DNA of 64,000 bases from IMG/VR virus record IMGVR_UViG_3300021376_000007. One strand, written 5' to 3'. This DNA is from a virus. This document shows positions 2,255 to 20,260 of this stretch, piece after piece. The notes beneath the pieces are model-generated. The model was not told the DNA's origin, did not search any database, and saw only the letters and a program-made list of their open reading frames with translations. The position numbers and the translations under genes are program-made. How positions within the stretch are numbered: position 1 is the first letter of the stretch; each line of letters begins with the position of its first letter.

Positions 2255-2259
2255 ATAAA

Positions 2260-2922: not shown

Positions 2923-3008
2923 AAATACCTTTAAATAGAGAGGCGGTGCCCAGAAAACAAATATTCTCTGGACACCGCCTTTTGTACAAACGAAATCACA
3001 AATTAATA

Positions 3009-5570
3009 TTAAAATTCATGATTAATGAGTTTGGTAACTTTTGGTTTCTCTTTGACATTTGTGAACACAATCGGAGAGTAGTTGGCATGAAATGCCTGAT
3101 AGTCAACTCGATTGTCAAACACATGAGTCTTACCGTCAGGATCAGTGTAGGTCCACTGATCATAACAGGTGGAAACAGGGGTGTACTTGCCGTTGGCAAA
3201 AGTCATGGCGACACGGTTGCCGATACCATAATGAATGAGAGCTTTTTCAAGGTACGGATAAACGACTCGGTTCATGACAATTTGATCGGAGTAACTGCCG
3301 TTTCCAGTGGGGATGAGTATGCTTGCAGCATAAAGAGAAATCACAAAGTCGTGTTGATCTTCAATTCGCTCATAAGAAAGAATCTTTTCAACAATGTTGT
3401 TGTAAAGAGAATCCCACTTATCTCGCTTGATTGCACCAACAGAGTAAACAGAATCATCAGCGTTGGCATTGTAGATGCCCATGCGGAATTGGCGAAGAAC
3501 CGGAATTGCATGGTAATACAAACGTTCAGAAATCTGTCGTACAGAATCGGAGAGTTCAATGTCTTCTTGTGCATACTTGTTGACGCGTTGAACATAGGCG
3601 TTGAAGTAGGACACGCAAAGACTGTTGAGATGAGTCAGAGTTCCTTCGTAGGTTTCAACTTCGGGATACTTCTTGGCAAGTGATTGAAAACGACCAGTCC
3701 AAAGATCTCGATCAATAGCTTTACCGGAATCGAGAACTTCTTGAATGATGGATTCTGCTTCAGCGTCAATTGCTTCGCGATCACGCCCATCAGATGTTTG
3801 AGTGCAGCCGTCAATTGCTGACTCCATAGAACAAACTTGAACGGGACGATGCTTGCGAATAACAGAAGAATGAAGCATGGATGCGTTGACATAGCGACCG
3901 ACGTTACCGCCGCCCATTGCAATGTCAACATCGTGCATCACATCTTCAACTGAATAGTTTTCACCAACTTGACGCGGAGGCTTTGGATCGTACTCGCTGG
4001 GAAGGCCGACATAACGAACTTCGTTGAGACGAATAGCTTGAGAAAGACGCTTTGGCCATCCACGAGAATTGACAGAAGGAAAAGTTACCTTCGTACCGTC
4101 GGACTTCTTCCAAGTCGGATACCATTGACCTTCAACATAATTGAAAATTGAATACTCGCCATAACCGTTTGGTGAACGAGCGACAATTACAACTTTCTTT
4201 CCGTCTTGATTTCCGCCTTCCATCTTGCGATAGAACAGCTTGAAAAAGTCGTCTTGGTCGTGACCGCCATGAGACTCGTACATCTCGAGCCAATCAAAGT
4301 CGTTCACGACATGAACGCCAAGATCGTTGATTCTGTGAATATCGCCTTCTTCAACCTGTATGTCGTATCCTGCCATCTTGGCAAGAGACTCTGGAATGAC
4401 TTGCTCATAAACGCTGCACGGAATCGGAATACGATTCTCAAGAGGCATTGCATGAGAAATAGCCAAAGTCTTGAAAAGCCAAGGAGAGTTAGTGATAGAA
4501 AGACCCATGCTCACCCAGCGGTGACCCACGTAGTTGAGTCGAGCTTGGGCTTCAAGGTCTTCTGTTTCACGATTTTCTCGAGAAAACTGACGAACGAAAA
4601 TTGAACTCCAATTGGCAAGCAACTTGCCGTTGATTGCGTCCTGAAACATCTTTTCGTATTCTTCCTTGAGCCACATTTCCATGTCAGACTTGCGAAACAA
4701 CTTGGGAAGGTTGATCACAGTCTGATCGTCGGTGATGACACGAGACTTGGGACCTTGGGGCTCGGCAAGAAAACGATAACCATTGGAGTAGGTGATCTCT
4801 TTCTTGAGATTGGTACGGGAAGATACCACGTCAATATCAAGAGGAAGATTATCAGAAACAAAGACATTGCCCTTGAGAAGACCTTCAGAAGTAAACAATC
4901 GAGCATTGAAAACTTTAGAAGATGAAAGGTAACGAAGAAGCTTTTGACGAAATTCTGGATCGTAATATATATCACTGTTGTCCAAAGACTGACCCTCTTG
5001 ATGATAAACAGGGAAATTGTCAAGTGCTTGTTGGATCAACCGAGAAGATATGACGAAACCACCGTCCAAAAGACGCTCAAGAGTGGAAGGGTCCTTGACC
5101 CAATCTGCCCATCCACCATTGACAAAATCGTAACGAGTGTAGTCAGTGGGTTCAACCCACTTGATGTTGAGATGGTCAAAATGGGCATTGATCAAAGATG
5201 CGCGATGAAATGACTTTGCACGCTTGGAAGTCTTGCCTCCACCTTTGACCGTGTAACCAGCTTGATTGAGTGCAGACATCCAGCCAGTTTGTCCCTTGAT
5301 GGTGCAAGCAACAACCTTGCGCTTGTCTACCAATGCATACTGGATGGAAGGATGAGTGATGATGTCGTAAAGCTTTTGACGGTCGTAAACATCCCCAGGA
5401 ATGGGCATCATGGCAATTCGAAACTCATCGGAATCTTCGGAAAGATCCATGAGTTCGCGCATGACACCGATGTCGTAAAAGCCAATTTGATAACCCTCTC
5501 CGGAACGAAGAGGAGCATTTTTGAAAGCTTTCATGCGGACTTTTGGTTGATATGTGTTGAAATAGTTCAT
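3009..5570 (-). CDS. Putative single-chain two-barrel (YonO/QDE-1-like) RNA polymerase, paralog A
   Basis: Motif order KTSKR, LDGGFVISSRL, FNARLFTSEGLLKGN, RIPIP, HGGHDQDD (4248-4271), VIVARSPN, GNVGRYVN, SAIDG; strong GGAGG RBS. Confidence 0.7.
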   Translation of the reverse strand: MNYFNTYQPKVRMKAFKNAPLRSGEGYQIGFYDIGVMRELMDLSEDSDEFRIAMMPIPGDVYDRQKLYDIITHPSIQYALVDKRKVVACTIKGQTGWMSALNQAGYTVKGGGKTSKRAKSFHRASLINAHFDHLNIKWVEPTDYTRYDFVNGGWADWVKDPSTLERLLDGGFVISSRLIQQALDNFPVYHQEGQSLDNSDIYYDPEFRQKLLRYLSSSKVFNARLFTSEGLLKGNVFVSDNLPLDIDVVSSRTNLKKEITYSNGYRFLAEPQGPKSRVITDDQTVINLPKLFRKSDMEMWLKEEYEKMFQDAINGKLLANWSSIFVRQFSRENRETEDLEAQARLNYVGHRWVSMGLSITNSPWLFKTLAISHAMPLENRIPIPCSVYEQVIPESLAKMAGYDIQVEEGDIHRINDLGVHVVNDFDWLEMYESHGGHDQDDFFKLFYRKMEGGNQDGKKVVIVARSPNGYGEYSIFNYVEGQWYPTWKKSDGTKVTFPSVNSRGWPKRLSQAIRLNEVRYVGLPSEYDPKPPRQVGENYSVEDVMHDVDIAMGGGNVGRYVNASMLHSSVIRKHRPVQVCSMESAIDGCTQTSDGRDREAIDAEAESIIQEVLDSGKAIDRDLWTGRFQSLAKKYPEVETYEGTLTHLNSLCVSYFNAYVQRVNKYAQEDIELSDSVRQISERLYYHAIPVLRQFRMGIYNANADDSVYSVGAIKRDKWDSLYNNIVEKILSYERIEDQHDFVISLYAASILIPTGNGSYSDQIVMNRVVYPYLEKALIHYGIGNRVAMTFANGKYTPVSTCYDQWTYTDPDGKTHVFDNRVDYQAFHANYSPIVFTNVKEKPKVTKLINHEF

Positions 5571-5669
5571 AATCCCTCCTTAAGAGATTTTATTGCCTTT
5601 CTTTTCTGAATATACTATTGCCTTATCAAAAAACAAAGTTATTCATTTATTGTTTTGATATCGTGGTGA

Positions 5670-6116
5670 TTAACCAAAAAGAATTTCAAGAGATTCTTCT
5701 ACAGTCCAAGAATCTTCTTTCGAAGCTTTGGACGATTTCTTTGAGCGAAGAGAATGCTTTTGGCCAATTGCAAATTTGATGTTTTTGTTGTATCGTACGA
5801 TTGCAATTTCTTGAGTGTCACTGACATCTACTTCAAGAACTTGAAGAGCATCAGGAAGCTTGCCCTCAAAAAGAATTTTTGGGTTTGGAACACCAAGAAT
5901 TGCAATTGCCCAGTGCGTTGTCTTTGCGGGAACAGCAATTCCAAACTTACTGGCTACTACGCCGTAGAAATCAAGAATGTTTCTGTCCTTGTCCTGAGCA
6001 CGGACAATTGGTTTGCAGTATGTGACTTTCTTGTCGTAATTGAACAGCTCATCAGGAGCCGAGTACAAGACAAGGTAGCAGTTGCGCCATTCGGCAGGGT
6101 AACTGGGATATGTCAT
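5670..6116 (-). CDS. Hypothetical protein
   Basis: 148-aa ORF with AGGA RBS. Confidence 0.7.
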   Translation of the reverse strand: MTYPSYPAEWRNCYLVLYSAPDELFNYDKKVTYCKPIVRAQDKDRNILDFYGVVASKFGIAVPAKTTHWAIAILGVPNPKILFEGKLPDALQVLEVDVSDTQEIAIVRYNKNIKFAIGQKHSLRSKKSSKASKEDSWTVEESLEILFG

Positions 6117-6151
6117 AATAATATTCCTGTTATGATTGTGTGTTTACAGTC

Positions 6152-6919
6152 TTAAGAAATTGATTCTTCAGTAAATGGGTTGTTTGGAATGTCTAGTGTT
6201 TGCTTTTTGCCATTGACAGTAATCTTAGTTGGTCTGTCGGCAGGAACTGCGTTGAGATCCTGATAAGCAACAGCATAATAATGGCTCAAGAAGATCTTTA
6301 CTGCGTAACGTCTTGCTTGTGCATCAATCTGTGCATCAGGAAGCTTACCTTCAAGAAGTGTGGTCTTGTCGTTGTTAAAACGAGGATTAAGATCTTGCAA
6401 GATCTTTCCTGCTTTTTCAGAATAATTACCCTGTTCGTTGTTTGTCAAACGACGTTTCTTGTCCTGAAGATAAAGCTGTCCGTAAAAACAGCTTTTTTCC
6501 TCTGAACGATCAGCAAAATTCGTACCAATTTTCCAACACAAAGATTTGAAATCTGGATTGTGTGAAAAGGAAGAATTTTTCTGAGTAGGATCAAGACCAG
6601 CATGGCGCCAAAGTGAACCAACATTTTCAAAATTGTTGATGTCAATAAAAGTTCCAAGAGCAGCTGCAATAGTGGGAGTAATGCCAATTTGAGAAATGGC
6701 CCAAGATCCCACTACAGTTGAACTTACATAGGGAGTGATTGCCCGATCAATTGTTTGAATAGAAGATTCAAGACTTTGTTCAAGATGGAGAATGAGATCA
6801 CCCTTTGTAACCAAGATCTTGTTACGATCCACAAGATCGTAAAAAGTATCCGTAAGGTTGTCAAGTTTTAGATAAAAATTAGTGAGTTCTTTGATTTGAG
6901 CAGGAGTAAAAGTGAACAT
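6152..6919 (-). CDS. IS110 C-terminal/Nop-domain protein lacking RuvC (TasA-like)
   Basis: Helical N-terminus, then QIGITPTIAAAL...SLWRHAGLDP, FYGQLY and AQARRYAVKIFLSH; no DEDD N-terminal domain. Confidence 0.65.
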   Translation of the reverse strand: MFTFTPAQIKELTNFYLKLDNLTDTFYDLVDRNKILVTKGDLILHLEQSLESSIQTIDRAITPYVSSTVVGSWAISQIGITPTIAAALGTFIDINNFENVGSLWRHAGLDPTQKNSSFSHNPDFKSLCWKIGTNFADRSEEKSCFYGQLYLQDKKRRLTNNEQGNYSEKAGKILQDLNPRFNNDKTTLLEGKLPDAQIDAQARRYAVKIFLSHYYAVAYQDLNAVPADRPTKITVNGKKQTLDIPNNPFTEESIS

Positions 6920-6949
6920 ATTAAATATTTCCTGTATTGTTATGGTTTA

Positions 6950-7396
6950 TTAAACACGAGCAGTTTTGTAAGCTTTGTATTTTGCAGAAGCTTCTTTGTA
7001 TTTTTGGAGGACAATTCTGGACATCCAAATGGGAGCAGTAATGAAACGAATTACTTTGTAAATTATCTTAGAAAGATCAACAAGAGCAACCTTCCATTTG
7101 TCCCAATGATGTTGAAACAAATTGCCTCCAACAGCTCTGGCAGGAGCTGAATCGTAATTCCAATGCAAGAAAGCATAACCAGGTATAGACAAAACAGTCG
7201 AAACCATGGCTGCACCAAGGGCAATCAAACCGCTTGCACCGAACGCCAGACCAAGAACGTATGATAAAAAGATCGAAACGAGCATGTTGAACCATTTGTA
7301 ATTATGAGCGTAATAGCGCCAAGCAGAAAATCTTGCCGCAAACATCATCTCCACAATAGTCGACGAAATGGCCAACATCATCATCATTATAAACAT
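6950..7396 (-). CDS. Membrane protein
   Basis: About three hydrophobic segments, basic C-terminus. Confidence 0.7.
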   Translation of the reverse strand: MFIMMMMLAISSTIVEMMFAARFSAWRYYAHNYKWFNMLVSIFLSYVLGLAFGASGLIALGAAMVSTVLSIPGYAFLHWNYDSAPARAVGGNLFQHHWDKWKVALVDLSKIIYKVIRFITAPIWMSRIVLQKYKEASAKYKAYKTARV

Positions 7397-7653
7397 ATTA
7401 AAGCCTTTTTATTAAATATTTATTTATTTTGTTCTTTGTCGAATTTATGCTGGACATACACAAGTGATGCAACAGTGGCAAAAACTGTGAGAACAGCAAT
7501 AAAGTCAATAAACAATCGAAATCCAGACATGATACTCCGTTTAATAATATTTTGTATGAATAAAAAAATAGTTTTTCCCGAGAGAACAAATCCAATGCCA
7601 CATATGGTAGTAGGTTTAAGTTCTCCCAGGAAAACACTATTCTATAGAGAAAA

Positions 7654-8004
7654 TCAGCGGGTGAGCATCACCCAGAGGTCCCAAGTCTTGGTCTTGTCGT
7701 TGTAGGCGGTTGAACGCGCCAGCGAAAGAACATCCTTGCGTGCACGGTTGTAGAGATTGTTGGTGAAATTGTAACAATCCTTCTTTGAGGTAAACGCGAT
7801 GTTGACATGGAACCACTGATTTTGGTTGTTGAGCAACTGCGCGTAGACAGCGGTGTAGATCGGATTGCGAGGACGCCCACGTCCAACGTTGAACGGTGGC
7901 TCAGTGACAGCGGTAAGAAGCTTGCTGGTGTGAGTGACAGCAAACTTGTCGGGACGGGTCATGAGTTGGGTCTCTGAAGAGAGATCCTTGATGCGTGTAG
8001 CCAT
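7654..8004 (-). CDS. Small basic putative DNA-binding protein
   Basis: AAGGAG RBS before MATRIKD; GRGRPR AT-hook-like motif. Confidence 0.6.
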   Translation of the reverse strand: MATRIKDLSSETQLMTRPDKFAVTHTSKLLTAVTEPPFNVGRGRPRNPIYTAVYAQLLNNQNQWFHVNIAFTSKKDCYNFTNNLYNRARKDVLSLARSTAYNDKTKTWDLWVMLTR

Positions 8005-8111
8005 ATTTGTCTCCTTGATAGTGAAACGTATTATTGTTTTGTTTGAGCTAATTCTGGGAACAGCCCGTATTGGTGCTTGTCCCCTTTTTTGGTATTTACT
8101 ATGTTTTATGT

Positions 8112-9080
8112 TCAAGTTGAATAAACTTTAATTCTCCAACTATGAAGTCTTTTTGGTTCTCTGTCATAAAGATACTTGGCCACTTTGACGTTGCATTGTG
8201 GATCTTTGAGAACTGACATATCACCGCGAGGAGATTTGCAAACCAAACTTGTTACAGTTTTCCAAGTACTGTTGATTTGCAAAATACCTGAGTCATAGCT
8301 AGAAACAGCTTTGCATTGTGGAGTTAAAGATTGACAATTGTTCTTTGACATTCCAGATTTGAAGTTCAAACCAATTACATGTGTTTGACAACGAGATTCT
8401 CGCCAAGCAATATAACTGAAAACTTTAACAGGAAGTTGATAATATTCAAACAAATGTTCCCATTTTTTACAATACATGGAAGAATTGGTGGGAAGTTTTA
8501 CATACGCGTGCTTGGTCCACTTCTTGGGTAATCCAATTCTCCATTTACCTGTCGATTTGGATTTAACACAGCCCCAGCCACCAAATCCAACAGGTTCCTT
8601 ATCGTATTGGTAAACGGCTGGTATACCTTTGATTTTGGCAATTTGGGGGTCACGGTAAACTGTGGTTTTGTAACCAAGAACGGCTATGCGATTAGCAACT
8701 TTGATCTGTTCTTCCATGGTTGCTTTGTCAGGAGATGGTGCGAATTCTTCGCCACCAAACCTTTCCCAAGTGCCCATAGAAGAAGAACCAAATTTGCCCT
8801 TGGTGTATATACCAAGTCCACCGGCCCATGTACCACCATTTTTCCAATTATTGGCAGTTTCACATTGTGCAACTTTTTGCCAATAATCAATGGTGGGAGT
8901 AAAGGTAACTTTATACTTTTTCCACTTGATAAATATCAAAGAAGAATCAGTAATCTCAGATGAAGAAGTTGACATTGAAGCAGATGGAAGAACTGCTTGA
9001 GCGGTAGGTGCAACTGTGGTTAGGATAATTGCACTAGTTGCCAGAATAAATGACAACATTGTTTTTCGTAATGTGCGCAT
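8112..9080 (-). CDS. Secreted muralytic enzyme: Rpf-like domain plus second lysozyme/SLT-like domain
   Basis: Signal peptide; WQKVAQCET..W..GGLG...TW..FGG..FAP.PDKAT.EEQI.VA (Rpf); IAWRESRC...DSGILQINSTW (SLT-like). Confidence 0.85.
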   Translation of the reverse strand: MRTLRKTMLSFILATSAIILTTVAPTAQAVLPSASMSTSSSEITDSSLIFIKWKKYKVTFTPTIDYWQKVAQCETANNWKNGGTWAGGLGIYTKGKFGSSSMGTWERFGGEEFAPSPDKATMEEQIKVANRIAVLGYKTTVYRDPQIAKIKGIPAVYQYDKEPVGFGGWGCVKSKSTGKWRIGLPKKWTKHAYVKLPTNSSMYCKKWEHLFEYYQLPVKVFSYIAWRESRCQTHVIGLNFKSGMSKNNCQSLTPQCKAVSSYDSGILQINSTWKTVTSLVCKSPRGDMSVLKDPQCNVKVAKYLYDREPKRLHSWRIKVYST

Positions 9081-9260
9081 GGTATCGCTCCTTTCGTGTG
9101 GGTTTGAGACTTACGTCTCATTAGCAAACGCGCAGGTTGCGAAACCGAAGATTGCACGGGCACATACGAGATGCCCGTTACAGTGGCAAGGTTGCCTCTC
9201 CGACTTCGTAGATATCACTATCTATTAGGTTGGGGATGTTACCCCTGCCCGTTAGGGCAT
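9081..9260 (-). promoter_or_regulatory. Long structured 5' UTR of the Rpf-like gene behind an extended -10 (TGATATAAT, about 9267-9275)
   Basis: Six short hairpins between promoter and GAAAGGAG RBS. Confidence 0.5.
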
Positions 9261-9480
9261 TTATACATTATATCAATATTCTGATAGTGTGAGTTATAAT
9301 TAAACAGATTTTTCCTCCGTTTTTAGGAATACATTTTGTACAAAGTGTATCCCCTGAGAGTCTAAATATTTAAACTCTCAGGGGACACTTCATGAAAACA
9401 TTGTACTCCTGCGCTTCGTAATATTAATTACGTTTCTAAAATAGTACCGTAATTTTAAAATATTACAAAGTTTTAAAGAA

Positions 9481-9729
9481 TTAATTATCTGAATTAAAAG
9501 TCATGCTGCTAGAGTTGACTTGGTTAGGAGTGACAGGAACATATGGATTAATTTTATATACGCCTCTACGAATTTGAGAGAATCTAGTAGGATTCTTTCT
9601 AATGTAGATATACACGTTTTGAACAGTGCAACCAACTTCTGATGCAAGCTGAGCAACAGTGATCTCAACTCCTTTGTTGTACTTGGTATTGATGAGCTGT
9701 TCAATCGCATTGGATTTACCTCTTGGCAT
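9481..9729 (-). CDS. Winged-HTH DNA-binding protein
   Basis: ITVAQLASEVGCTVQNVYIYI helix-turn-helix and RRGVYK wing; GGAGGAG RBS. Confidence 0.75.
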   Translation of the reverse strand: MPRGKSNAIEQLINTKYNKGVEITVAQLASEVGCTVQNVYIYIRKNPTRFSQIRRGVYKINPYVPVTPNQVNSSSMTFNSDN

Positions 9730-9912
9730 TTTGATACTCCTCCGTGAGGGATGATTATTGCTTGTTAAGATATATAAAGATATATAAATATAAGGTAAGA
9801 CTATAGTATATATCTAAAATATCTGAAGTTTTTTAGATACAACTCTTACAAACATATAATATTATAGCATAAAAACCAATTAAGGTGTATAAAATAGGGC
9901 ATATAACAAAAA

Positions 9913-10179
9913 TTATATTTCTACGCCCTTACAGGAACACAATTCGCGGTAAGCTTCAGGAAGATTAGAAAAGGATTCTGAAAGAATTTTCAAACCTTCA
10001 AAAAGCTTAGAAAGAGCTTCTTTGTCTTCTAGATTTATAGGGACACGAAATATCAAATCGTAATATTTATTGTAGACAGAATTAAATGTATTCAACAAAC
10101 CATAAAAATTAGCTTCTAAATTCATCAATTCTGGATTGTCTAAAGGTTCATATGAGTTATAGTGTTGAGTAATATCCAC
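9913..10179 (-). CDS. Hypothetical protein
   Basis: GAAAGG RBS, 88 aa. Confidence 0.55.
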   Translation of the reverse strand: MDITQHYNSYEPLDNPELMNLEANFYGLLNTFNSVYNKYYDLIFRVPINLEDKEALSKLFEGLKILSESFSNLPEAYRELCSCKGVEI

Positions 10180-10417
10180 AATGAACTATTGCCTTTCTAA
10201 AATAAAAAATGTGGGAGAGCCGCTCTGGTCAATTGGAAAGGGAAGTAATTGACCAGAGCAAGCTCTCACTTTGTAAGTTTTTAAAAGCAGAAAAGGAGGG
10301 TATTCTTACTTTAATTTGATACATACAAAGTTTTTCCAGGATTTTTCATGCCCAAGAAAAACTAAGTATATATAAGATTTTATATTAAAGCGTGCAAAAT
10401 CGCGCGATTATTTTTTT

Positions 10418-10762
10418 TTAAAATGGTTCGTCGAAATGCTTACCACGTGCATGTGTAGGTAACACGACATCATAGTGATGATTAAGCTGCTGCACAAGTT
10501 CGTTGGTTTTCTTGTACACACTCCAAACGTTGGTCAAACGAGCGTACAGATAGGGATCTGTATTTTGAAGAGTGGTATGTTCACAAGGCTCTGGACAAAA
10601 TCCGCCAGATATATAACCTACAGTTTCAAAAAGAGCTTTCAATATAGCGTCATAGATAGCAATCATAGACTTGTAGGATTCAGCCTGGTTGGTCCAATCA
10701 CAATCGACTAGAGGAATCGGATGATCAAGATCATGGCTTAACACTTGATTATGGTTTAACAT
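10418..10762 (-). CDS. Hypothetical protein
   Basis: GAAAGG RBS, 114 aa. Confidence 0.6.
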   Translation of the reverse strand: MLNHNQVLSHDLDHPIPLVDCDWTNQAESYKSMIAIYDAILKALFETVGYISGGFCPEPCEHTTLQNTDPYLYARLTNVWSVYKKTNELVQQLNHHYDVVLPTHARGKHFDEPF

Positions 10763-10779
10763 TTAAAATGCCTTTCTTT

Positions 10780-11052
10780 TTAGGAAGCAGAGATGGAAGT
10801 ATTGTAAATAAGTGACATTATGGCGAGATTAAAAAGCAAAACGCCCGCAATCATATAAATTGCCAAAGTGACTTGGCCAGCTACATACAAGGTTACAGCC
10901 AAGGGTATGGTCACAAAAGTATCCAGAAGTAGATCAATTGCGACAAAAGAATAGATAGCGATCATTGCTCTCTTTAAAACTCTTTTATTATCTTTGAGAG
11001 AATAAGTCTTGGCAGAAAATCTGCCTAAATTCTTGAATAATCTAGTGAGCAT
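10780..11052 (-). CDS. Small membrane protein
   Basis: Basic N-terminus and two hydrophobic helices. Confidence 0.6.
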   Translation of the reverse strand: MLTRLFKNLGRFSAKTYSLKDNKRVLKRAMIAIYSFVAIDLLLDTFVTIPLAVTLYVAGQVTLAIYMIAGVLLFNLAIMSLIYNTSISAS

Positions 11053-11499
11053 TGTAACTTCTTATGTAAGACAATAATAATAAAGCTACTTTAGAATAAA
11101 TAGCTTGTTCTTTGTTAGAACAATAATTATTTGGCATAATAGAAGAAGGTTTATGTCCGAGATATGTAGATAAAACAAGATAGACAGTGTACACACTAGA
11201 GGTACAGGTGTACACATAAGGGGTTTATAGAGGTGTACATAGGTTGGAACTGGGTTCCCCCCTGCGAGAGCATAGGTTTTGTGGTTTGGGCAACAAAAAA
11301 CCTAAAATATTCTTTAATATTTCAACTAAAAGGTTAGCATATACTGTGTATATATGCGTATAAATTATAAATACTGACAAGATTTTTTGCGGCGATTCTC
11401 GCTCTAGTTTTAAAAAAAATATTTTAAATACAGAGGCATATGACAAAGCCGGTATAGGTGACCACCATACCTACACCGGCTTGTCTGCCCGCATAAATT

Positions 11500-11718
11500 T
11501 TAACGCACAGTCAATTCAACATTGTACATTCGCTTGAAATCACGTCTCATGGGATGTAGAGCAGATTCGGTAGCGTGAGTAATGTACATTGGGCCTTTGA
11601 TACTCGGAGGGGGGAGTATCTTATAAACGCCCGACTTGGCTCTTTCAACTGTAAATCCTAACCGAATTAAATCAGTCAGTATTTTCTTCATTGCTGAAGA
11701 CTGATGTTGCCGAGGCAT
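11500..11718 (-). CDS. HicA-like (dsRBD-fold) small protein
   Basis: MKKILTDLIRLGFTVERAKSGVYKI pattern; AAGGAG RBS; no adjacent HicB seen. Confidence 0.5.
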   Translation of the reverse strand: MPRQHQSSAMKKILTDLIRLGFTVERAKSGVYKILPPPSIKGPMYITHATESALHPMRRDFKRMYNVELTVR

Positions 11719-11929
11719 AGTTTTGAATTTCTCCTTTAAATGTGCTGCTTATTTGGACAATGATAATGATATCATCGCCGTATAAAAATAGCAACACATT
11801 AGTAGAAATATTTCGCTCGAATCGCAATCATTAAAATTGACATTTTAAATTGGGCGATTCTCGCTCTAGTCTTAATATAAAAAACCAATATATATAGCAT
11901 TCACTATGTACATTGGCTTTTTATAGTTT

Positions 11930-12184
11930 TTAAAGGTAACTTTTGATGAATGTGACTCGACGACGCTGGATTGCTTTGTCTAGACAGTCATCGCAGATGA
12001 TGGCGTGATAGACATTCAAGTCAAAACTTGAGCCGTATGAGCCTACGATGTCTATATCAACTGCATTGTTGAGATTGCTTGGAACTCCACCATCTTCAAG
12101 AACGTGATCTGGCCACAAGTACATGATGGCTTTTTCACATATGAGACAGGGTGTATCAGGTGCTTGCATTAGTCCTTCTCCCAA
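11930..12184 (-). CDS. Zn-binding hypothetical protein
   Basis: CLIC ... ICDDC. Confidence 0.6.
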   Translation of the reverse strand: MGEGLMQAPDTPCLICEKAIMYLWPDHVLEDGGVPSNLNNAVDIDIVGSYGSSFDLNVYHAIICDDCLDKAIQRRRVTFIKSYL

Positions 12185-12381
12185 CTGTTGAAGTATTCCG
12201 GGTCTCCGACCCAGAAAGCCCCTGTGCCGTCACTTTTGTCCAACCATTCGTTCAGGCACTTGTGAAGAAACTGGCGATAGTCGTCTTGAGGTTCGTCGAA
12301 GTATGCCGAGTGAAAGCAGATGTCTGAGTGAACGTTGCCTTCTGGAGTTTCGTAGATGATTTCTCCACAGAACTCTTTCAT
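12169..12381 (-). CDS. Hypothetical protein
   Basis: Translationally coupled to the upstream ORF (TAATG). Confidence 0.6.
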   Translation of the reverse strand: MKEFCGEIIYETPEGNVHSDICFHSAYFDEPQDDYRQFLHKCLNEWLDKSDGTGAFWVGDPEYFNSWEKD

Positions 12382-12683
12382 TACTGGACCTCCTTGTGGT
12401 TTTTGACGAAACGGTCCATGGACTTCATGACGAGATCCTGTCCGTCGTTCTCGAGAGCCTTGAGCCAGGTCTCGACGACTTTGAGGTGGGTGTCGTGCAT
12501 GCTCTTGTGCGTATTGATCTGTTGCTTGTAGAGCTCGATCATGGTCTTGAGGTTGTCGATTTTCTCGGATTGGACATCGACGATGCGCCTCATGACCTCG
12601 ATGTTCTGGTTCATGACGAGTTCACGGAATTCCGGCGACTTGCCGAACTCCGCGAGGTGTTGGTGGATTTCTTCGTTGGACAT
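12381..12683 (-). CDS. Coiled-coil hypothetical protein
   Basis: GAGG RBS; GC-rich third codon positions. Confidence 0.7.
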   Translation of the reverse strand: MSNEEIHQHLAEFGKSPEFRELVMNQNIEVMRRIVDVQSEKIDNLKTMIELYKQQINTHKSMHDTHLKVVETWLKALENDGQDLVMKSMDRFVKNHKEVQ

Positions 12684-12799
12684 TGTGTTTTCCTCTTTTG
12701 TATGAAATTAAAAATAGGTGTATATAGGTTTATAGAGATTGATGTAGGGCACACCACAGTGTCGTTTAAGAAGCGTTAGACACGCATTCCCCTACAATC

Positions 12800-12871
12800 G
12801 GTGGAGATGCTGGGAATCGAACCCAGATGATGGACATTGGCGAACCGCAGTCCCGAAGCCATTTCATCCCC
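12800..12871 (-). ncRNA. tRNA-Ala/tmRNA tRNA-like-domain mini-RNA (no mRNA-like domain)
   Basis: GGGGATG/CATCTCC acceptor stem with G3:U70, discriminator A, T-arm CTGGG-TTCGATT-CCCAG, no D-stem, short GGAC..GTCC arm. Confidence 0.7.
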
Positions 12872-13030
12872 GTGTGCATATTTTTGTGCAGAGAACATGC
12901 AAACTCCGTCCGTTCATTTTACCAAGGCTTACGGCCATCCTTGTAACTTACAGTGAAGTAAGAACTAGCATTTTTTGATGTGCGTTTATTATACTGTATG
13001 CGCACCCCACAGTTGGGGGTTAGCCCTGGG

Positions 13031-14026
13031 TCAGAAGGGGTCCTCTTCGACGACCGCCTTGTCCGTGACAGTGCTGGTCTGGTCGGCACGAGCCGAGTTC
13101 GACCACAGGTCACAGGCAACTTCCTCTCCATTGATCACGAGGGTGAATCGACCGCAAGGAGCGTTCACCGGATCGTAGATGTTCTGGGGAGTCTTGGCAC
13201 CATTCTTTGCAATGGTGATTCGTTGCTGGCTACCTGACCAGTTCGATGCCCATTGGCGAGCAAGCTTCTTGAGCTCATCTGCCTTCTCGGCTGCAGCCTT
13301 GACCTTTGCCTGCGGGAGATCATCGGACTTCTGCTCGAGGATGTGAGCCTCAAGACGAAGTCCGTAGACACGCTGGAAGGTGGTGACTGAAGCATCGACA
13401 AGGTTCAAGAAGCCCTGATTGGTACGAGACATCTTGCGGTCCGTCGTGCCGAGCTCGAAGTCGGTCACTGGAACGCCAGTCTTGTGCTGGTACGCGGCCA
13501 CGATGCGACCGGGGTTGTCGATGTTGCTCTTGACAGCGCCTGCACTCTTGAACGCCTCGATGGCATGCTTGATGCCGTCTTCGGAAGCACCGAACTGCTG
13601 GAAGAACAACGGCATGCCGTTCATGTAGTTGAGCCCCGATGCAGCGAGCGAAGCCTCGAACTTGGAACGGTCAGTCGTGCCAGTCATGGTCTGGAGCAGG
13701 TCCACGATGCTGTAGGTCTCGCCGTCGATGTTGACGTTGAGGTCCATACGCACAGGGTTCATGACGCCAGTGACGAGCAGGTAGTCGTGTCCAACGTTGT
13801 TCGGGCTGGTCTGCCGAAGCACGGACAAACGACGCAGGGAAGCCTCACGGAGAGTGACTTCTGCCGGGACGTTCTGTCCGTTGATGGAACCAGTGAACTT
13901 CACGGTCTTGTCGATGTGCAGTCGCTGGGTGCGGGCCGTCGACTGGAGCGCGTCGATGTTGTCCGCAATTGAAGAGAACAGATCGGTGTTGAGACCGAAC
14001 TTGTTCAACATGGATTGTGTGTTCAT
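13031..14026 (-). CDS. Probably abundant hypothetical protein with SSB-like acidic tail
   Basis: 331 aa, strong codon bias, ends VVEEDPF; AGGAG RBS. Confidence 0.65.
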   Translation of the reverse strand: MNTQSMLNKFGLNTDLFSSIADNIDALQSTARTQRLHIDKTVKFTGSINGQNVPAEVTLREASLRRLSVLRQTSPNNVGHDYLLVTGVMNPVRMDLNVNIDGETYSIVDLLQTMTGTTDRSKFEASLAASGLNYMNGMPLFFQQFGASEDGIKHAIEAFKSAGAVKSNIDNPGRIVAAYQHKTGVPVTDFELGTTDRKMSRTNQGFLNLVDASVTTFQRVYGLRLEAHILEQKSDDLPQAKVKAAAEKADELKKLARQWASNWSGSQQRITIAKNGAKTPQNIYDPVNAPCGRFTLVINGEEVACDLWSNSARADQTSTVTDKAVVEEDPF

Positions 14027-14122
14027 TAGATATCTCCTAATGTGTTTATGTGATTATTTGTTTGTGAGCTATTTGTGAATGGTCATGCCGAAACATTCCC
14101 ATTCTTTTTGTTCGCGCTACTT

Positions 14123-14377
14123 CTACTTGTCGGTAGCGAGATCATCATCCAATTCGTGCAACTCAGTTGCCTCATCGGATTCATCAGTCTTGGGACGCAC
14201 TTCTCGCCAACCATCTGCATAAGCATTGCCGATGATTTTCGTGATGTTCGCCGTCTTTCCCGGAGTAGATTTGACCACGTTGAGTGTTTTCTCTGCTATT
14301 GATCCGGTTCCTGAAACTGTTTTGGCAGTTATCTTGCCAAACCACTTGCTTGTTTTTTCTGTTTTCATTGTTTTCAT
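14123..14377 (-). CDS. Hypothetical protein
   Basis: Basic N-terminal half, acidic tail; GAGG RBS. Confidence 0.6.
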   Translation of the reverse strand: MKTMKTEKTSKWFGKITAKTVSGTGSIAEKTLNVVKSTPGKTANITKIIGNAYADGWREVRPKTDESDEATELHELDDDLATDK

Positions 14378-14504
14378 TCCTCGTAATTATTGCTGCTGTC
14401 TCCTGGAATGAGCATTTCCAAGAATGATATAATCATATCCATTAACCAATCGTACATTGTCCTCCTTTCTTTTCTGTATTTAATGTTTAACAGATAAAAA
14501 AAGA

Positions 14505-14792
14505 TCAAACAACTGCTTTTATGTAATTGTCAATGTACCATTGTGCAAGTGAACCATGTTCACGAATTCGGCGAGAGTGCTCAATGTTGTATCTGGGATA
14601 CGCCTTGAAGTACTCAGTACCGTCACACAGGTTGGCTTCTGGGTTTCTTCCTGTGTGGTCGACAATCATGAGAACGTTGGAGTCCATGCTGACGCGGATG
14701 TAGGCCTGACCACCATTGTAGTGATACAGCCTATTTTCGTTGGCAGCAATGTCAACAAGTTCAAATGCTTGTAGGCTTGTCAGTGTTTGCAT
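14505..14792 (-). CDS. Hypothetical protein
   Basis: AAGGAG RBS before MQTLTSL (start shortened from ORF track). Confidence 0.6.
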   Translation of the reverse strand: MQTLTSLQAFELVDIAANENRLYHYNGGQAYIRVSMDSNVLMIVDHTGRNPEANLCDGTEYFKAYPRYNIEHSRRIREHGSLAQWYIDNYIKAVV

Positions 14793-15122
14793 TATTTGCT
14801 CCTTGTGATGTATTTGTTGCGTGCCCAGTCGCCGGTGTAGAGGCCGATGACAAAGCACACGGTTGTAATTGCAACTGTGATGTGCTTACGCATTTTGTTT
14901 TTCCTTTGTTTGAAGTTTATTCCGTAATTGATTGAATCATTTTTTGTGTGAGCTCAGAGTGGTCGAGAATCTGCAGACCACCATAGCTTTCATCCATGAA
15001 TTGCATGCAATTTTCAAGCGACCCGGAATAAAGAATGAACTGGTCTCCTACGTCAACTACGTAATATTCAATTGAAGAATTGAACTTATTCATTACTTTG
15101 TTTTACTTTCCTTGCCGATTTT

Positions 15123-15329
15123 TCACATCGGTGGTTCGGGTCGTACACGAACAGTTGTTTGCTTTTCCTTGTAGTGATTGTAGATATCGTCCATCTTGGA
15201 CGGATTGTCGCCAGCCCAATTGACGTTTTTCTTCTTCTTTTCATCTTCGGACATGACCCACAGCCAGAAAGCGGTTCCAAACAGGAATCCGGCGTTGAGC
15301 AATTTGATTGTTTTGATGAATGATTTCAT
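15123..15329 (-). CDS. Small single-pass membrane protein
   Basis: One hydrophobic helix; AAGGA RBS. Confidence 0.6.
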   Translation of the reverse strand: MKSFIKTIKLLNAGFLFGTAFWLWVMSEDEKKKKNVNWAGDNPSKMDDIYNHYKEKQTTVRVRPEPPM

Positions 15330-15429
15330 TGTTTGTTCCTTTTTGTGATGTTATTTGATGGAGTTTGAAAAATTAGAAAATAAATAAAAAACATTACTTT
15401 AAAAATTAGAGAGAATAAAGAAATTCAGT

Positions 15430-15730
15430 ACAGGTGAGTGAAGAACCGGATAAGCACATTGGTTCTCCACTCACCGTACCGGGAGTTGACACGCAAGATT
15501 GTCTAGAGAATGGGCCTGTTGAATCCATTGTCAAGAGGGAAACTATTTCCTTGGGGCACAGGCAAGACCCAGTCCGTCTTAAGTCTACGACGTGTAGAGA
15601 TGGTAGGGGGCCACCATCCGCCTTTTATAGTCAATGCTCGGGACTATTCGAGGTATTCAGCCTCGAGAGTATTTAGATTATTCATGTGGTCTGCTCTCAT
15701 TGACCACAGTAAGTCCGAATTGGACAAAGG
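15430..15730. ncRNA. Candidate structured non-coding RNA
   Basis: GC-richer intergenic stretch with at least seven consecutive hairpins and no RBS-led ORF. Confidence 0.45.
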
Positions 15731-15831
15731 TTTTTATTTCTCGCGACATACTATAGGTTTCTGACCGAACCAGTATGTAGTTTTATGGGTGTTGTCAGTA
15801 TGTAATCTTTCCTTGCTCAAGGGAAAGAAAT

Positions 15832-16044
15832 CTACCAGCGTTCGCGTACGAAATTGCTGACGACTTGAGTGATTCGCTCTTTGAAGAACGGGTCGAGCAT
15901 TGACCCACGAATCTCTTCTGCGATGACTGGTCGCACTTCGCACAACATGTTGAAGTAAATCTGGCCGAGGCGCAAATCATCTTTCACAGGTTGTGAGGCA
16001 TGAACCATCACGACTTTGTGGTGAAACTCGTCGTAGGTCATCAT
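15832..16044 (-). CDS. Hypothetical protein
   Basis: LRLGQIYFNML...LDPFF; coupled to an upstream 55-aa ORF (16041-16208). Confidence 0.65.
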   Translation of the reverse strand: MMTYDEFHHKVVMVHASQPVKDDLRLGQIYFNMLCEVRPVIAEEIRGSMLDPFFKERITQVVSNFVRERW

Positions 16045-16339
16045 CGGCAGAGACGGCAGTTGCAGGAATGCACCGCCATGGGATTGAACCGGTTTCGGAT
16101 TTCGTCGGCGATGTCCTCGGCACGGGTGATTCCTGCTTTGGTCTCGTCGATGAGGTCCCGGAGACGGACGGTGTCCGACTCTTCTTGGGTGAGTTGTCTG
16201 AGCTTCATCTTTACCTCCAGATGAATGTTGTGGGACGTATCCCTTCTTTTTTGAACGCGATCAGTAGTCTAGGCTTAAAGAGAGAAACGGCCTCTGACCC
16301 AACCCGAAGGTGGGCCAGAGACCGGGTCTCCCGATGGGC

Positions 16340-16762
16340 TCAGGACAGCTCGTCGTCGACGGGGCTGTCGTTCTCGAGCAGGGCCTGCAGGTCGTCGCTC
16401 ACGGAGAGTGTCCGCTTGACCACGGTCAGCTCGGAGGGACCGTCGGCCCAGCACGAAGCCTGCATCTGCGTGACCGTCTCACCGGACTTGGTCAAGAAGG
16501 TGTTCTCCTTGGGCTCGGTGATGACGATGTTGTCGCAGGCGAGGGCCAGTTTGGCGTTGTTCTTCTTGCAGGCCTTCACAGCACGCGTGATGGTCTCGAG
16601 CTGGTTCTCGAAGACCTGCATCATGAGCGTGTCGACGTGGCCGATTCCTGCCTCGGTCAGGGTCTGCTTCGACAGGCCCACGAGGACCGTGTAGAAGATG
16701 TCACCGTTGGTCTTGTGGTTGACTTTGGGTGCAGTGTTGATGTAGATGTACTTCTTGGACAT
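16340..16762 (-). CDS. Putative OB-fold/SSB-like protein, paralog 1
   Basis: Beta-rich with acidic tail; clearly homologous to 19577-20011 (FxTVLVG, L.L.CD..V.TE.K.N, QAS.W..G.S.L). Confidence 0.55.
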   Translation of the reverse strand: MSKKYIYINTAPKVNHKTNGDIFYTVLVGLSKQTLTEAGIGHVDTLMMQVFENQLETITRAVKACKKNNAKLALACDNIVITEPKENTFLTKSGETVTQMQASCWADGPSELTVVKRTLSVSDDLQALLENDSPVDDELS

Positions 16763-16920
16763 TGTGTTGACTCCGTTTGTGATTGGTTGGTTGTTTGTTG
16801 GGAACTAGTCCCTTCTTTTTAGAAGATAAGTACTAGTTTAGAAGGTTCTCGACAGATATTTTCTAGACAAGACCCAGACTAAAGGTTTAGAAGACTTTTC
16901 AATAATTATTATTCTTTCTC

Positions 16921-19413
16921 CTATGGTTGAATAGATTCGAGTGCCCGGATGTACCAGTCCACCACCTGAGACTGACTCTTGCGGCTGAAGGTGAACAGCC
17001 ACTGATCGTGATTCTGACGTGGGTACCTTTCCTTTGCAATGTAGGATTGACGAGCCAGCAACAGAATCTTCCTGTTGGTGAACTCAATTCCCTTGTCAGG
17101 ATTGTCATCGGTCCTCTGAAGCAATCCGGTCATGTAACTGACCCACTCGTCTGCAGTAGTCTGCCTTTGCTTGACACACAGCTTCTGATGCTGGTCAGCA
17201 GCAGCTTGCATTTCTTCTTCTGTGAACTCAATGTTCATAATGATCTCAGGCTGAACAAGAGTTGTGTTCAGATAGTCAATCATTTCTGCGTACTTGACAC
17301 GAACAAGCATCTCTCTGAAGATGTGCAATGCGCACCACGGAGAGTCTTCCATGGTAGTTGCTTCAATGCCTTCTGCAAACCGCTTGGGCAGACGTGTTTC
17401 CATCCAGAACAGATCCATTTTGGTTCCATTCATGCCGTGCTTAGCAATGATTCGACCAAACGTCCTGTTGCACCACTGCTGGATCTTTGTGGCATCGTCT
17501 ACAGTGAGCATTCCTTGAGTCAGGGCATCCAGCATTTCCTCATTGCTGCAGACCGGCTGTGCAATGTATGTCTTCATGAGTGCGTAGTGCACAATCTTGG
17601 GCAGCACTGCAGATCCAACTCCTCCAGGGAACACGGCAGACACCATCCTGGAACGAGCTTCGTCAATCAACGAGAACTCTGGGAGAATTGTCAGCTTGTG
17701 AATTCCGGCCAAAGAACCAGGCTTGATCAGTTGGTTCTCCAGCAGATAGGACAGCTGAGGAACTTTTGTCCTCAATTCGTTCATATCAATCACAGGAGGC
17801 GTTTCTGTGTAGGCGTGGAACACCGGACCGGGTTCATCAACTTCAATGACAGACCACTCACCAAAGTCATTGGGATTTCTCAAGAGGAAGGCAACCATCT
17901 TCATCTCGCCGTCAATCTCAGCCATACGGATGTGAACCTTGAATGTGTCGTCAAGGTCTGGACCACCATGATTTGCAAGATTTTCGCTGAAGAACTTGCC
18001 AGGCACAGCAAAGCAGTGGGTCTTCTTGTGGTAATAACCGCTCTGATTGTACACATTGCTGAAGCCAAAGATGTCCAGCGCCTCTTGAGTGATGATGTGA
18101 GCAGCAAATGCCCATTCAACAGGGAACCAGTGACGAGACTTTTCCCTCCAGATGTTGTTTATCTTTCCAGTATTATTGAATCCCTGACCCATGAATTGTG
18201 TTGCCACACCATGAACAGTCAAGAACCTCAACGATTGAGTTGCGTCGTATGGAACACCCAGTTTGTCAAGATCTCTGATTGCTTCCTGAACCATCTGCAG
18301 ACTTGACCTTGGATCCTTGAAGTCGTCTTCCGGACCCTCAGCAGTTGCAGTCACCAAGATGTCAGCGTTGTCAACCAATGCTGTCATTGATGCTGAGCGT
18401 CGACCGTCACGCAAGCACTCATCCTCATGGTTGAGGTAGTTCTGCAGAGTTGTCAACAAGTCTTGTGCAGTGTAAAGTCCCGACACATCCTGGTAGATTG
18501 AGTGAGTCAAATCATCGCTCTTAACAGGAATGACGCCATGCGAAGGCTCGATTGTCGCCAAGCACCATCCGTTTGTCTTCAACTCTGACTTGATGTTTGG
18601 GTTAAATGTCCTGATTTCCTGCCCCTTCATCATGCGATCCGGAAGGACCAGAGCATTGCCCTTGATCAAACCCATTGGCGTCAAGACTCGCAGTTGAACA
18701 ACTGTCATCTTGCCACTGACAACTTTGTCAATCATCGTGCCAACCCATTCCATGTTTGCAAGGTGATTTGCCGCAAAGCACTTGATTGCAAAAGACTGAC
18801 TGATTGCCGAGATGCCATCGACATCACTGTCAAGGTAAGCCAAAGCCTCATGATCAATGACCTCAATCTTCATGTCGCCAGTAGGACGGTACTGCCATGC
18901 ACATGAAAGCCTTGCAATCTCTGCAAACCTCTTGGACATCTTCTTTGAGTTGCCCACGAGGAGACCAATGTGTGTCAGAGGAGTCAACCAAGAGTCGTCA
19001 TAGACCCCGTCAATGAAGAGCGTGTACTGGTCCTCATCTGTTGACCAGCGAAGAACTTCACCAGGTTCGGGGTTCATTGTTGCCCGTTCTGGATGAGACT
19101 TGACGCTGTTGTACCACTTTTTGCCGTGCTTTCTCACTTCAACCCTGTATTTGCCAGGGAAGAAGGTCTCGAGTAACACTGGCCAGTAAGTTCCGTTGTC
19201 GAACTCGTCCAGAATCTTCTCTTGCTCCTTGAGTGGTGTGGACGTCAGAACGCGCTGCCATCCGTTGTTGTTTGCTGTGATTCCATGAAACATGGAAGAA
19301 CCTCCTGTTGGGTGGTTTGTTGTTTGGGTTTTCTCCGGGCTAGTGCCAGGATCTGATACCGAGGGTTCGGTATTTGGTGGGTAGTGGGTGGATGGGACAG
19401 GGTGATCGCTCAT
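16921..19413 (-). CDS. Putative single-chain two-barrel (YonO/QDE-1-like) RNA polymerase, paralog B
   Basis: KMSKR, VDGISAISQSFA, VQLRVLTPMGLIKGN, HGGPDLDD (17947-17970), LLRNPNDFGEW, GGVGS, EMLDA; collinear with 3009-5570. Confidence 0.7.
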   Translation of the reverse strand: MSDHPVPSTHYPPNTEPSVSDPGTSPEKTQTTNHPTGGSSMFHGITANNNGWQRVLTSTPLKEQEKILDEFDNGTYWPVLLETFFPGKYRVEVRKHGKKWYNSVKSHPERATMNPEPGEVLRWSTDEDQYTLFIDGVYDDSWLTPLTHIGLLVGNSKKMSKRFAEIARLSCAWQYRPTGDMKIEVIDHEALAYLDSDVDGISAISQSFAIKCFAANHLANMEWVGTMIDKVVSGKMTVVQLRVLTPMGLIKGNALVLPDRMMKGQEIRTFNPNIKSELKTNGWCLATIEPSHGVIPVKSDDLTHSIYQDVSGLYTAQDLLTTLQNYLNHEDECLRDGRRSASMTALVDNADILVTATAEGPEDDFKDPRSSLQMVQEAIRDLDKLGVPYDATQSLRFLTVHGVATQFMGQGFNNTGKINNIWREKSRHWFPVEWAFAAHIITQEALDIFGFSNVYNQSGYYHKKTHCFAVPGKFFSENLANHGGPDLDDTFKVHIRMAEIDGEMKMVAFLLRNPNDFGEWSVIEVDEPGPVFHAYTETPPVIDMNELRTKVPQLSYLLENQLIKPGSLAGIHKLTILPEFSLIDEARSRMVSAVFPGGVGSAVLPKIVHYALMKTYIAQPVCSNEEMLDALTQGMLTVDDATKIQQWCNRTFGRIIAKHGMNGTKMDLFWMETRLPKRFAEGIEATTMEDSPWCALHIFREMLVRVKYAEMIDYLNTTLVQPEIIMNIEFTEEEMQAAADQHQKLCVKQRQTTADEWVSYMTGLLQRTDDNPDKGIEFTNRKILLLARQSYIAKERYPRQNHDQWLFTFSRKSQSQVVDWYIRALESIQP

Positions 19414-20037: not shown

Positions 20038-20260
20038 TGGACTAAGTACTGCTGTGTGCGTCCACGTTAACGCAGCAGGAAACTCATCTTCAGTTACAAG
20101 TTCAGTCCATTGGACATCCCCCTAAAGCTTGACTCTCGGTCTTGTTTCAAGTAACGACCGGGCGACTCGATATTTATACAGTACAGCCAACCCTGTAGGT
20201 GATCTAGGATCTACCCATAAAGGGAAAACCGTGCTGGCTGCACGGTATCCCTGCTTTTAT

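Follow-up and report, generated by a model that had tools for sequence, protein, structure and literature searches.

Two paralogous single-chain two-barrel RNA polymerase candidates with a reversed order of metal loop and R-x-P turn in an uncultured lake phage

Can a protein be a two-barrel RNA polymerase when the two signatures of its presumed catalytic barrel stand in reversed order along the chain? The question is raised by two genes of an uncultured lake phage of about 200 kb (IMG/VR record IMGVR_UViG_3300021376_000007), of which a stretch of 64,000 nucleotides, hereafter the window, was analyzed. Both genes are intact open reading frames on the minus strand: polymerase paralog 1 (P0001; 853 amino acids, 3009..5570), with its own Shine-Dalgarno sequence AAGGAGG, and polymerase paralog 2 (P0002; 830 amino acids, 16921..19413), with an alternative start at 19293 (Met41). 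Databases label these proteins hypothetical. To our knowledge, every two-barrel polymerase described so far, be it bacterial beta-prime, QDE-1, or a relative of PolD, has the same order of elements, in which an R-x-P turn precedes a DxDxD metal loop; in the two phage proteins, R-x-P follows a DxDD loop. It is argued here, with a probability that we put at roughly 70%, that the products of both genes are active single-chain two-barrel nucleotide polymerases of the QDE-1/RDR/YonO/gp64 kind, which arose by an ancient duplication, have a rewired barrel, and would serve the phage's own transcription, presumably on a DNA template. Residue numbers without another label are those of P0001, and the window coordinates of the motifs were confirmed by translation.

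The kinship between the two proteins is distant. BLASTP aligned them with an E value of 5e-8 at the block that holds the Asp loop, together with a second, collinear block. When the two families were compared as profiles built from 57 and 55 sequences, hhalign returned a probability of 99.8 and an E value of 1.4e-27, with 586 aligned columns and an identity of about 18%. Taken together, the pairwise and profile-profile comparisons identify P0001 and P0002 as true and very old paralogs. An earlier note on this DNA had listed a series of ordered blocks shared by the 853- and 830-residue proteins, and all of these blocks proved to be present and invariant in a joint alignment of 113 sequences of both families. 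Thirty-three columns of this alignment are invariant, including K113, K116, R117, D169, G170, R224, G230, K233, G234, N254, K256, E258, D281, G435, G436, D438, D440, D441, R465, P467, E472, and G558. All of the blocks are read from the minus strand. The first is K.SKR, which occurs as KTSKR in P0001 (5220..5234), in a helix before barrel 1 (residues 114-122 of the model described below), and as KMSKR in P0002 (18928-18942); its residues K113, K116, and R117 are also invariant in 31 distant members that carry fused domains. It is followed by DG...IS (5046-5066 in P0001, 18799-18819 in P0002), by (N/Q).R.....GL.KGN (4866-4907 and 18655-18696), and by DD.T, which in P0001 comprises D281, D282, and T284. 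The presumed metal-binding loop reads HGGHDQDD in P0001 (4248..4271; D438, D440, and D441), with DxDD in place of DxDGD, and HGGPDLDD in P0002 (17947..17970; invariant G483, G484, D486, D488, and D489). Beyond it lies the R-x-P turn, RSPNGYGE in P0001 (4155..4178), with R465 24 residues after D441, and RNPNDFGE in P0002 (17857..17880; invariant R512, P514, and E519), 23 residues past the Asp loop. The last block is G.VG (3897-3911 in P0001).

The unusual order of these motifs extends to the whole family. When 1.84 billion cluster representatives were searched with a profile, 595 clusters (50% identity) reached E <= 1e-3, of which 260 reached E <= 1e-30, and the membership is almost wholly viral. 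HGGxDxDD was found in 121 of 121 and in 118 of 119 retrieved homologs (239/240 overall), with RxPN located 18-24 residues beyond it in nearly all 240, so the motif observation stands far beyond chance. In a set of 386 members from the wider superfamily, the loop reads DxDD in 378 and DxDGD in 7, and R-x-P is positioned after the Asp loop in 384, at a distance of 18-24 residues that reaches up to about 50. The seven members with DxDGD all belong to the P0002 clade; in two near-complete relatives introduced below (G004 and G005), the loop of the second paralog reads WDQDGD. Because R-x-P follows the loop in 384 of 386 members, the seven with DxDGD included, the reversed order is a property of the whole family and is independent of the change to DxDD. 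Both features, which the earlier note had reported for the two proteins, are thus family-wide. In the 31 distant fusions, the first and second Asp of the loop are invariant and the third is at least 90% conserved. It is conceivable, given that the canonical DxDGD is missing, that these proteins descend from a polymerase but have lost catalysis and now serve structural or regulatory ends. This is extremely unlikely because some 33 columns, including all presumed catalytic residues, have stayed invariant across paralogs with 17-20% identity and across the divergence of 595 clusters.

The predicted structure places P0001 among the two-barrel enzymes. An AlphaFold2 model built on the joint alignment had a predicted local distance difference test score (pLDDT) of 90.2 and a predicted template-modeling score (pTM) of 0.87. 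A Foldseek search of the PDB with this model gave 22 matches at E <= 0.001, and every one was a single-chain two-barrel RNA polymerase (QDE-1, 2e-9; RDR2, 4e-8; P23-45-type gp64 and gp62, 2e-5), in line with the polymerase assignment of the earlier note. The next matches were crAss phi14:2 gp66 (3.6e-3) and P23-45 gp96 (0.04). The accompanying table of structural matches, in which the two columns of values are unlabelled, lists 12.8 and 568 for maize RDR2, 10.1-10.4 and about 595 for QDE-1, 9.5 and 374-401 for gp62 and gp64, and 7.5 and 296-315 for gp96. Among predicted viral structures, the sole close relatives were two "uncharacterized proteins" of uncultured Caudovirales, followed by phage proteins labelled RdRP (RNA-dependent RNA polymerase) and by P23-45 gp64. 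Feature matches in the ESM Atlas, to Cas8-like clusters, were dismissed as noise (scores <0.9; pLDDT of the Atlas model of P0002, 0.34). As in the two-barrel superfamily, the P0001 model has two barrels in one active-site cleft together with flanking helical domains, and the beta-like barrel B is a double-psi barrel bearing conserved basic residues. Barrel 1 (residues about 128-273; 4752..5189, minus strand) is a standard double-psi beta-barrel that carries D169 (in DGGFVIS), N222-x-R224, K233-G234-N235, and N254-x-K256-x-E258. Further along the chain, helices 541-552 and 557-570, with the invariant G555 and G558 (GGNVG), lie at the place expected of the bridge helix and trigger loop. The fold of P0002 would be like that of P0001, because the profile match between them extends over 586 columns.

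The residues of barrel 1 can be compared with those of QDE-1, whose roles have been assigned from complexes of that enzyme. There, the RNA product is bound by R671, which sits in an auxiliary helix; D709 in barrel 1 assists metal B; Q736-x-R738, K743, and K767 contact the RNA product and the phosphates of the nucleoside triphosphate (NTP); R962-S963-P964 form the Pro-Gate loop, in which R962 reads the 2'-OH of the incoming NTP; and D1007, D1009, and D1011 coordinate both metals (PMC9508822). Mapped by motif position rather than by superposition, barrel 1 of P0001 keeps the QDE-1 order, that is, K113/K116/R117, D169, N222-x-R224 (Q240-x-R242 in P0002), K233, and K256, with a spacing from K233 to K256 of 23 residues versus 24 in QDE-1. 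Moreover, R465-S-P467 is identical in sequence to the Pro-Gate. Also by motif position, the KTSKR helix is proposed to be the counterpart of the auxiliary helix that bears R671 and holds the RNA product. By analogy with QDE-1, barrel 1 would grip the RNA 3' end and the NTP phosphates via R224, K233, and K256, and D169 would assist at the second metal ion. In the catalytic barrel, two Mg2+ ions would be held by D438, D440, and D441, and R465 and P467 would gate the incoming NTP through its 2'-OH.

These likenesses raise the possibility that the phage proteins are themselves RdRPs that make double-stranded or antisense RNA for regulation or counter-defense. The best structural matches, QDE-1 and RDR2, are eukaryotic cellular RdRPs, and the N/Q-x-R signature of barrel 1 is typical of the RdRP branch related to RNA interference and not of RNA polymerase II (PMC9508822). 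Such a role is nonetheless very unlikely, given the company these proteins keep: QDE-1 copies DNA as well as RNA (PMC9508822), P23-45 gp64 and gp96 are DNA-dependent transcriptases (PMC10770324), the PDB entry of crAss gp66 labels it a DNA-dependent RNA polymerase, and YonO has been placed among the two-barrel RNA polymerases (PMC7824862). Additionally, the relatives of the lake phage, with double-stranded DNA genomes of 200 kb, are without any other recognizable conventional RNA polymerase or sigma factor. It should be added that the sequence does not reveal whether the template is DNA or RNA, as the earlier note rightly held.

The catalytic barrel (residues about 382-478; 4137..4427, minus strand) has a non-canonical order of elements in the P0001 model. 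The string, identical in two models, runs from strand 386-393 through helix 394-399, a tight hairpin (410-414/419-422), and helix 424-433 to HGGHDQDD, and on through strand 442-451 to a second hairpin, 459-465 and 474-478, that encloses R-S-P-N. From the first helix to the Asp-loop helix there are only 24 residues with two short strands, whereas the equivalent stretch in gp64 and QDE-1 spans 40-45 residues and includes RxP; this is where a canonical barrel accommodates strand 3, the gate, strand 4, which is long, and strand 5. The pattern of the canonical unit of strand 3, gate, and strand 4 (in gp64, RVIFNRRPDLPTGQSAVELTYVG) is seen in the hairpin that follows the Asp loop, KVVIVARSPNGYGEYSIFNYVEG. 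The Pro-Gate turn of QDE-1 lies 43 residues before the first Asp, and R465 of P0001 lies 24 residues after the last.

Covariation was used as a second source of evidence on the strand arrangement. Mean-field direct coupling analysis (DCA) was applied to 371 domain sequences (about 200 effective). Among the top 0.1% of couplings, H434-S474 and G435-E472 place the start of the Asp loop beside the start of the strand after the gate, and L445-V463, Y447-Y478, and M450-I475 tie the strand that follows the Asp loop to each strand of the gate hairpin; the group further includes S395-D424 and P393-Q439. In the canonical double-psi beta-barrel, the strands are said to neighbor one another in the order 1-5-2-4-3-6. 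If strands 386-393, 419-422, 410-414, 474-478, 459-465, and 442-451 are assumed to represent strands 1, 5, 2, 4, 3, and 6, respectively, the best DCA ladder of all six neighbor pairs is oriented as predicted, with 1-5 and 2-4 parallel and the other four antiparallel. Judging from the order of secondary structure and from covariation, it is therefore fairly probable that the catalytic barrel is rewired, with the 3-4 gate hairpin relocated to a position after strand 6 and a tight turn connecting strands 2 and 5. The spatial arrangement would appear to be normal, with the hairpin packed beside strand 442-451 and its tip adjoining the metal loop. Strict circular permutation was abandoned as an explanation, since the pre-Asp strand, the helix, and the short hairpin do not recur after the R-x-P hairpin in the order that it requires. 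The rearranged double-psi barrel that the earlier note suggested thus has indirect support from the shortage of strands before the Asp loop, the R-S-P hairpin behind it, and covariation, but the data fit a transposed hairpin better than the circular permutation.

A less radical explanation is that the barrel is threaded canonically, that the R-x-P-N hairpin after the Asp loop merely resembles a Pro-Gate, and that the true gate has degenerated through divergence and insertion. Indeed, a short hairpin (410-414/419-422) does precede the Asp-loop helix, and the DCA contacts b-d and d-e are compatible with a small conventional half-barrel. Foldseek matched the isolated catalytic domain to nothing at E <= 0.001; a wide VIA search gave weak sequential matches to the largest subunits of RNA polymerases, and spurious ones to sliding clamps. 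These weak domain matches still point to RNA polymerase active-site barrels (model range 29-167), as canonical threading would have it. A weak sequential alignment to the right domain would also be expected of a re-threaded barrel, which it fits and does not prove. The same search listed no generic double-psi barrels of the p97-N or formate dehydrogenase type, which is not evidence for a new fold. Canonical threading nevertheless seems unlikely, though far from negligible. Between the first helix and the Asp-loop helix there are two strands, both short, where a canonical barrel needs three, one of them long, and no Arg or Pro is conserved in that stretch across both families. Conversely, R465, P467, N468, and E472 show little or no variation, covariation ties them to the HGG turn, and the strands of their hairpin couple to the post-Asp strand, as canonical strand 3 would.

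The relatives of the two proteins provide a wider context for the transposed hairpin and for its function. A tree of the domain separates a P0001 clade of 182 sequences from a more diverse P0002 clade of 197, and a third copy, described below, forms a long outlying branch. Only 1 of 185,579 species genomes holds a copy, on a 42-kb contig (CAZGYC010000034.1, L092) of a metagenome-assembled genome (MAG) of Limnohabitans, with 30% identity over residues 11-828. This is probably a phage contig that was binned with the Limnohabitans MAG, and it hints at a betaproteobacterial freshwater host, with Limnohabitans as a lead. Five relatives (G001-G005; loci L002, L007, L009, L026, and L034) have genomes of 202-210 kb that are 96-100% complete, three of them with terminal repeats. 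Both paralogs are kept in 5/5 of these near-complete genomes, 11-16 kb apart.

Of 31 long members of the P0002 clade, 7 carry a PIF1-type SF1B helicase at the N-terminus, 5 carry NADAR, and 3 carry DUF4326; the fused members include P0233, P0235, P0245, P0232, and P0234, and some of the proteins reach 1,700-2,100 amino acids. The helicase fusions open the possibility that one paralog, that of the P0002 clade, is a helicase-coupled primase or an RNA polymerase that initiates replication rather than a transcriptase. Each of the five relatives encodes a DnaB-like helicase of about 500 amino acids, and the primase models DNAG_N, Toprim_4, Toprim_2, and Prim-Pol had no match in any of them, all positive controls having worked. 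A role in replication is distinctly unlikely for this enzyme, however: primases can slip past Pfam models, P0002 itself is without a helicase domain, the NADAR and DUF4326 fusions are not replication domains, and the P0002 gene ends a 23-unit array of small early gene cassettes, away from replication genes.

A third copy of the polymerase resides in a giant protein of about 1,250-1,650 amino acids that is encoded in all five relatives; in G001 and G004, its gene appears as two or three separate open frames (L082, L086, L085, and L087). In four of the five, the middle part of the protein contains FDGIS.., R...G..IK, and GGFDLDDK, followed by RQP...E about 22 residues later; no such polymerase motif was found in the ortholog of G003. 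The family profile matched the four orthologs in hhalign with a probability of 96.2 and an E value of 2e-9 over 304 columns. In G005, the giant protein has a C-terminal hydrophobic segment and adjoins an open reading frame of 1,678 amino acids and a protein of at least 1,009 amino acids with an endolysin domain. By analogy, this is a typical setting of internal virion proteins that are ejected, and the giant protein is probably ejected as well. In G002 (L006, L007, and L049), a 95-codon frame lies a short way downstream of the ortholog of polymerase 1 and has LGGYDLDDKSI at its end. The likeness of this end to the Asp loop of the third copy may be due to chance, or the frame may be a gene fragment.

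For the role of virion enzyme, the copy in the giant protein is a better candidate than the free-standing ones, both of which would therefore be non-virion enzymes. On the model of P23-45 (PMC10770324), this third copy would arrive together with the DNA and begin transcription, and the two free-standing enzymes would act as non-virion DNA-dependent RNA polymerases that serve later gene classes through different signals. The gene content of the relatives would best be read as such a phage-run transcription relay. The split of labor between the two copies that the earlier note entertained is retained in part, with the virion role passing from the free-standing pair to the third copy.

Several observations weigh against two active polymerases of this kind. 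No link at the level of sequence connects P0001 or P0002 to any characterized polymerase. Pfam and PHROGs had no match to either protein, and none emerged from phmmer and profile searches of PDB sequences or from tblastn against 50,697 deposited phage genome records. A match to the PF05183 (RdRP) profile, which the earlier note had proposed for comparison, was absent for both proteins at E <= 1. Comparison by hhalign with the gp64 family (gp64 and five homologs) was not significant (E 0.29), nor was that with gp64 alone. The canonical DxDxD signature of the two-barrel superfamily is missing in 98% of members, although three invariant or near-invariant Asp residues are retained, and the R-x-P that stands before the Asp loop elsewhere in the superfamily does not do so here. 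The DCA rests on about 200 effective sequences, and several pairs of non-neighboring strands score like the weaker of the predicted neighbors. PF00623 and PF00562 (beta-prime/beta) and PF04542 (sigma-70 region 2) were not found in the five relatives, with working positive controls, which excludes conventional enzymes only, because these Pfam models also miss the polymerases of the window; a similarly divergent enzyme would escape. An RNA polymerase of the T7 type was not found either, in a search that had no positive control. PF05183 was not found in the five relatives at E <= 1, and the B. subtilis control gave a sub-threshold signal, which we take to be YonO.

The start of P0002 may lie further downstream than its longest frame indicates. 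Its first 40 codons (19293-19413) are rich in Pro, Thr, and Ser and are missing from most homologs. As the majority of the 118 homologs begin at the equivalent of Met41, and as a second Shine-Dalgarno sequence and ATG occur at 19293, the first 40 residues may be untranslated. Both ATGs, at 19413 and 19293, are well supplied with Shine-Dalgarno sequences, and two forms of the protein are thus possible.

The surroundings of the two genes in the window are those of a phage, with genes for the large terminase, portal, tail fibers, RecA, a ClpX-like ATPase, an SF2 helicase, a PcfJ-like protein, and a lytic transglycosylase. The small open reading frames that neighbor the polymerase genes had zero matches in a Pfam search. 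G+C content is 46-52% across most of 12001-32000 (42% in 14-16 kb) versus 33-45% elsewhere in the window, such that polymerase 2 lies within a GC-rich block and polymerase 1 within an AT-rich part. Directly after the stop codon of P0001, a consensus scan identified a terminator-like hairpin with an 18-bp stem (2941..2980, minus strand). k-mer counting over 1-17000 did not find a repeated promoter-like motif for paralog 1, and sigma-70-like sites near both polymerase genes were no commoner than in shuffles.

For P0002, the signals are of a different kind. An array at 19473-31786 comprises 23 copies of a 32-nt unit, which on the plus strand consists of CTACCCATAAAGAGAAAACC and a variable GC hairpin and on the minus strand reads as hairpin, T-run, and TTTATGGGTAG. 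Its core pattern has 22 matches versus 0.23 expected. The copies are 265-740 nt apart, with one gap of 2.4 kb over the PcfJ-like gene (21319-23280), and 14 of them have an extra GCCGTCAAG block in common. The array divides its region into single-gene cassettes, and P0002 is the last gene downstream, closing it. The last copy, a hairpin with a TTTATGGGTAG-like signal (19473..19504, minus strand), lies 60 nt upstream of the P0002 ATG and is a candidate unit of terminator and promoter. An exact direct duplication of 300 nt (19380-19679 and 23247-23546), the copies of which are 3,867 nt apart, includes a single cassette signal and also the 3' end of a gene of 144/148 amino acids. The genes that lie upstream of polymerase 2 and of the PcfJ-like gene are thus twins. 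Parts of the duplicated sequence recur a third time, with 76% identity, at 16508-16721, downstream of polymerase 2.

The use of arginine codons also differs between genes of the window. P0001 uses CGT, CGC, or CGA for 47 of 49 Arg residues and AGA once, P0002 favors AGG (14/38), and the late genes (38313-52608) nearly always use AGA (e.g., 76/100 in 38313-41933). In-frame CGG occurs at conserved Arg columns in both polymerase genes, at codon 177 of P0001 and at codons 110, 678, and 823 of P0002 (R823 is invariant), and these genes would therefore have to be translated under standard decoding, as early genes of this phage are expected to be; in-frame CGG was never seen in the sampled late genes. 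If these strands are drawn together, the gate hairpin would have been re-inserted after strand 6 in a lineage of at least 595 clusters, with the metal site compressed to DxDD and the spatial site kept, and three enzymes would run a host-independent relay in lake phages of about 200 kb that switch their reading of CGG during infection. We give this combined account even odds.

If true, the re-threading would show how far the two-barrel active site, which is among the most conserved protein machines, can be rearranged along the chain. Nature would in effect have tested which connections within the double-psi barrel can be spared, and the outcome would bear on models in which the barrel originated from duplicated half-barrels. 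The family would also bring to light an overlooked apparatus for transcription in jumbo phages that abound in fresh water, and it offers compact enzymes of about 800 amino acids for biochemistry. In the literature searched, no description was found of the DxDD site, of the reversed order of gate and metal loop across some 600 clusters, or of the three-copy arrangement in jumbo lake phages.

The phage single-chain two-barrel RNA polymerase as such is an already known kind of enzyme. One of its representatives, YonO of SPbeta, has the canonical motif order. YonO and the YonO-like enzymes of group 3 jumbo phages are single-chain two-barrel RNA polymerases related to the RdRP branch (PMC7824862). 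The virion RNA polymerase gp66 of the crAss-like phage phi14:2 (PDB 6VR4) has the canonical DFDxD (10.1101/2020.03.07.982082); it is much larger than the lake-phage proteins and is without sequence similarity to them. The cellular enzymes QDE-1 and RDR2 (PF05183; PDB 2J7N, 7Y7P-T, 7W82, and 7ROZ), which have no detectable sequence homology to the lake-phage proteins, differ from them in the metal loop (DxDGD versus DxDD) and in the gate, which in QDE-1 lies 43 residues before the Asp loop rather than about 24 after it. The lake-phage proteins are, moreover, phage-encoded and shorter (about 800-850 amino acids), and they lack the C-tail and N-terminal domains of QDE-1. In P23-45, the non-virion gp64 and the tape-measure-fused virion enzyme gp96, with orthologs in P74-26 and P32 (PDB 8F72, 8F5M, and 8H2M; PMC10770324), are also single-chain two-barrel RNA polymerases, with a canonical DYDGD or DFDGD and an RRP about 40 residues earlier, an order that is reversed in the lake phages. 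P23-45 has one free-standing copy, whereas the lake phages have two, together with a third copy that is a candidate virion enzyme.

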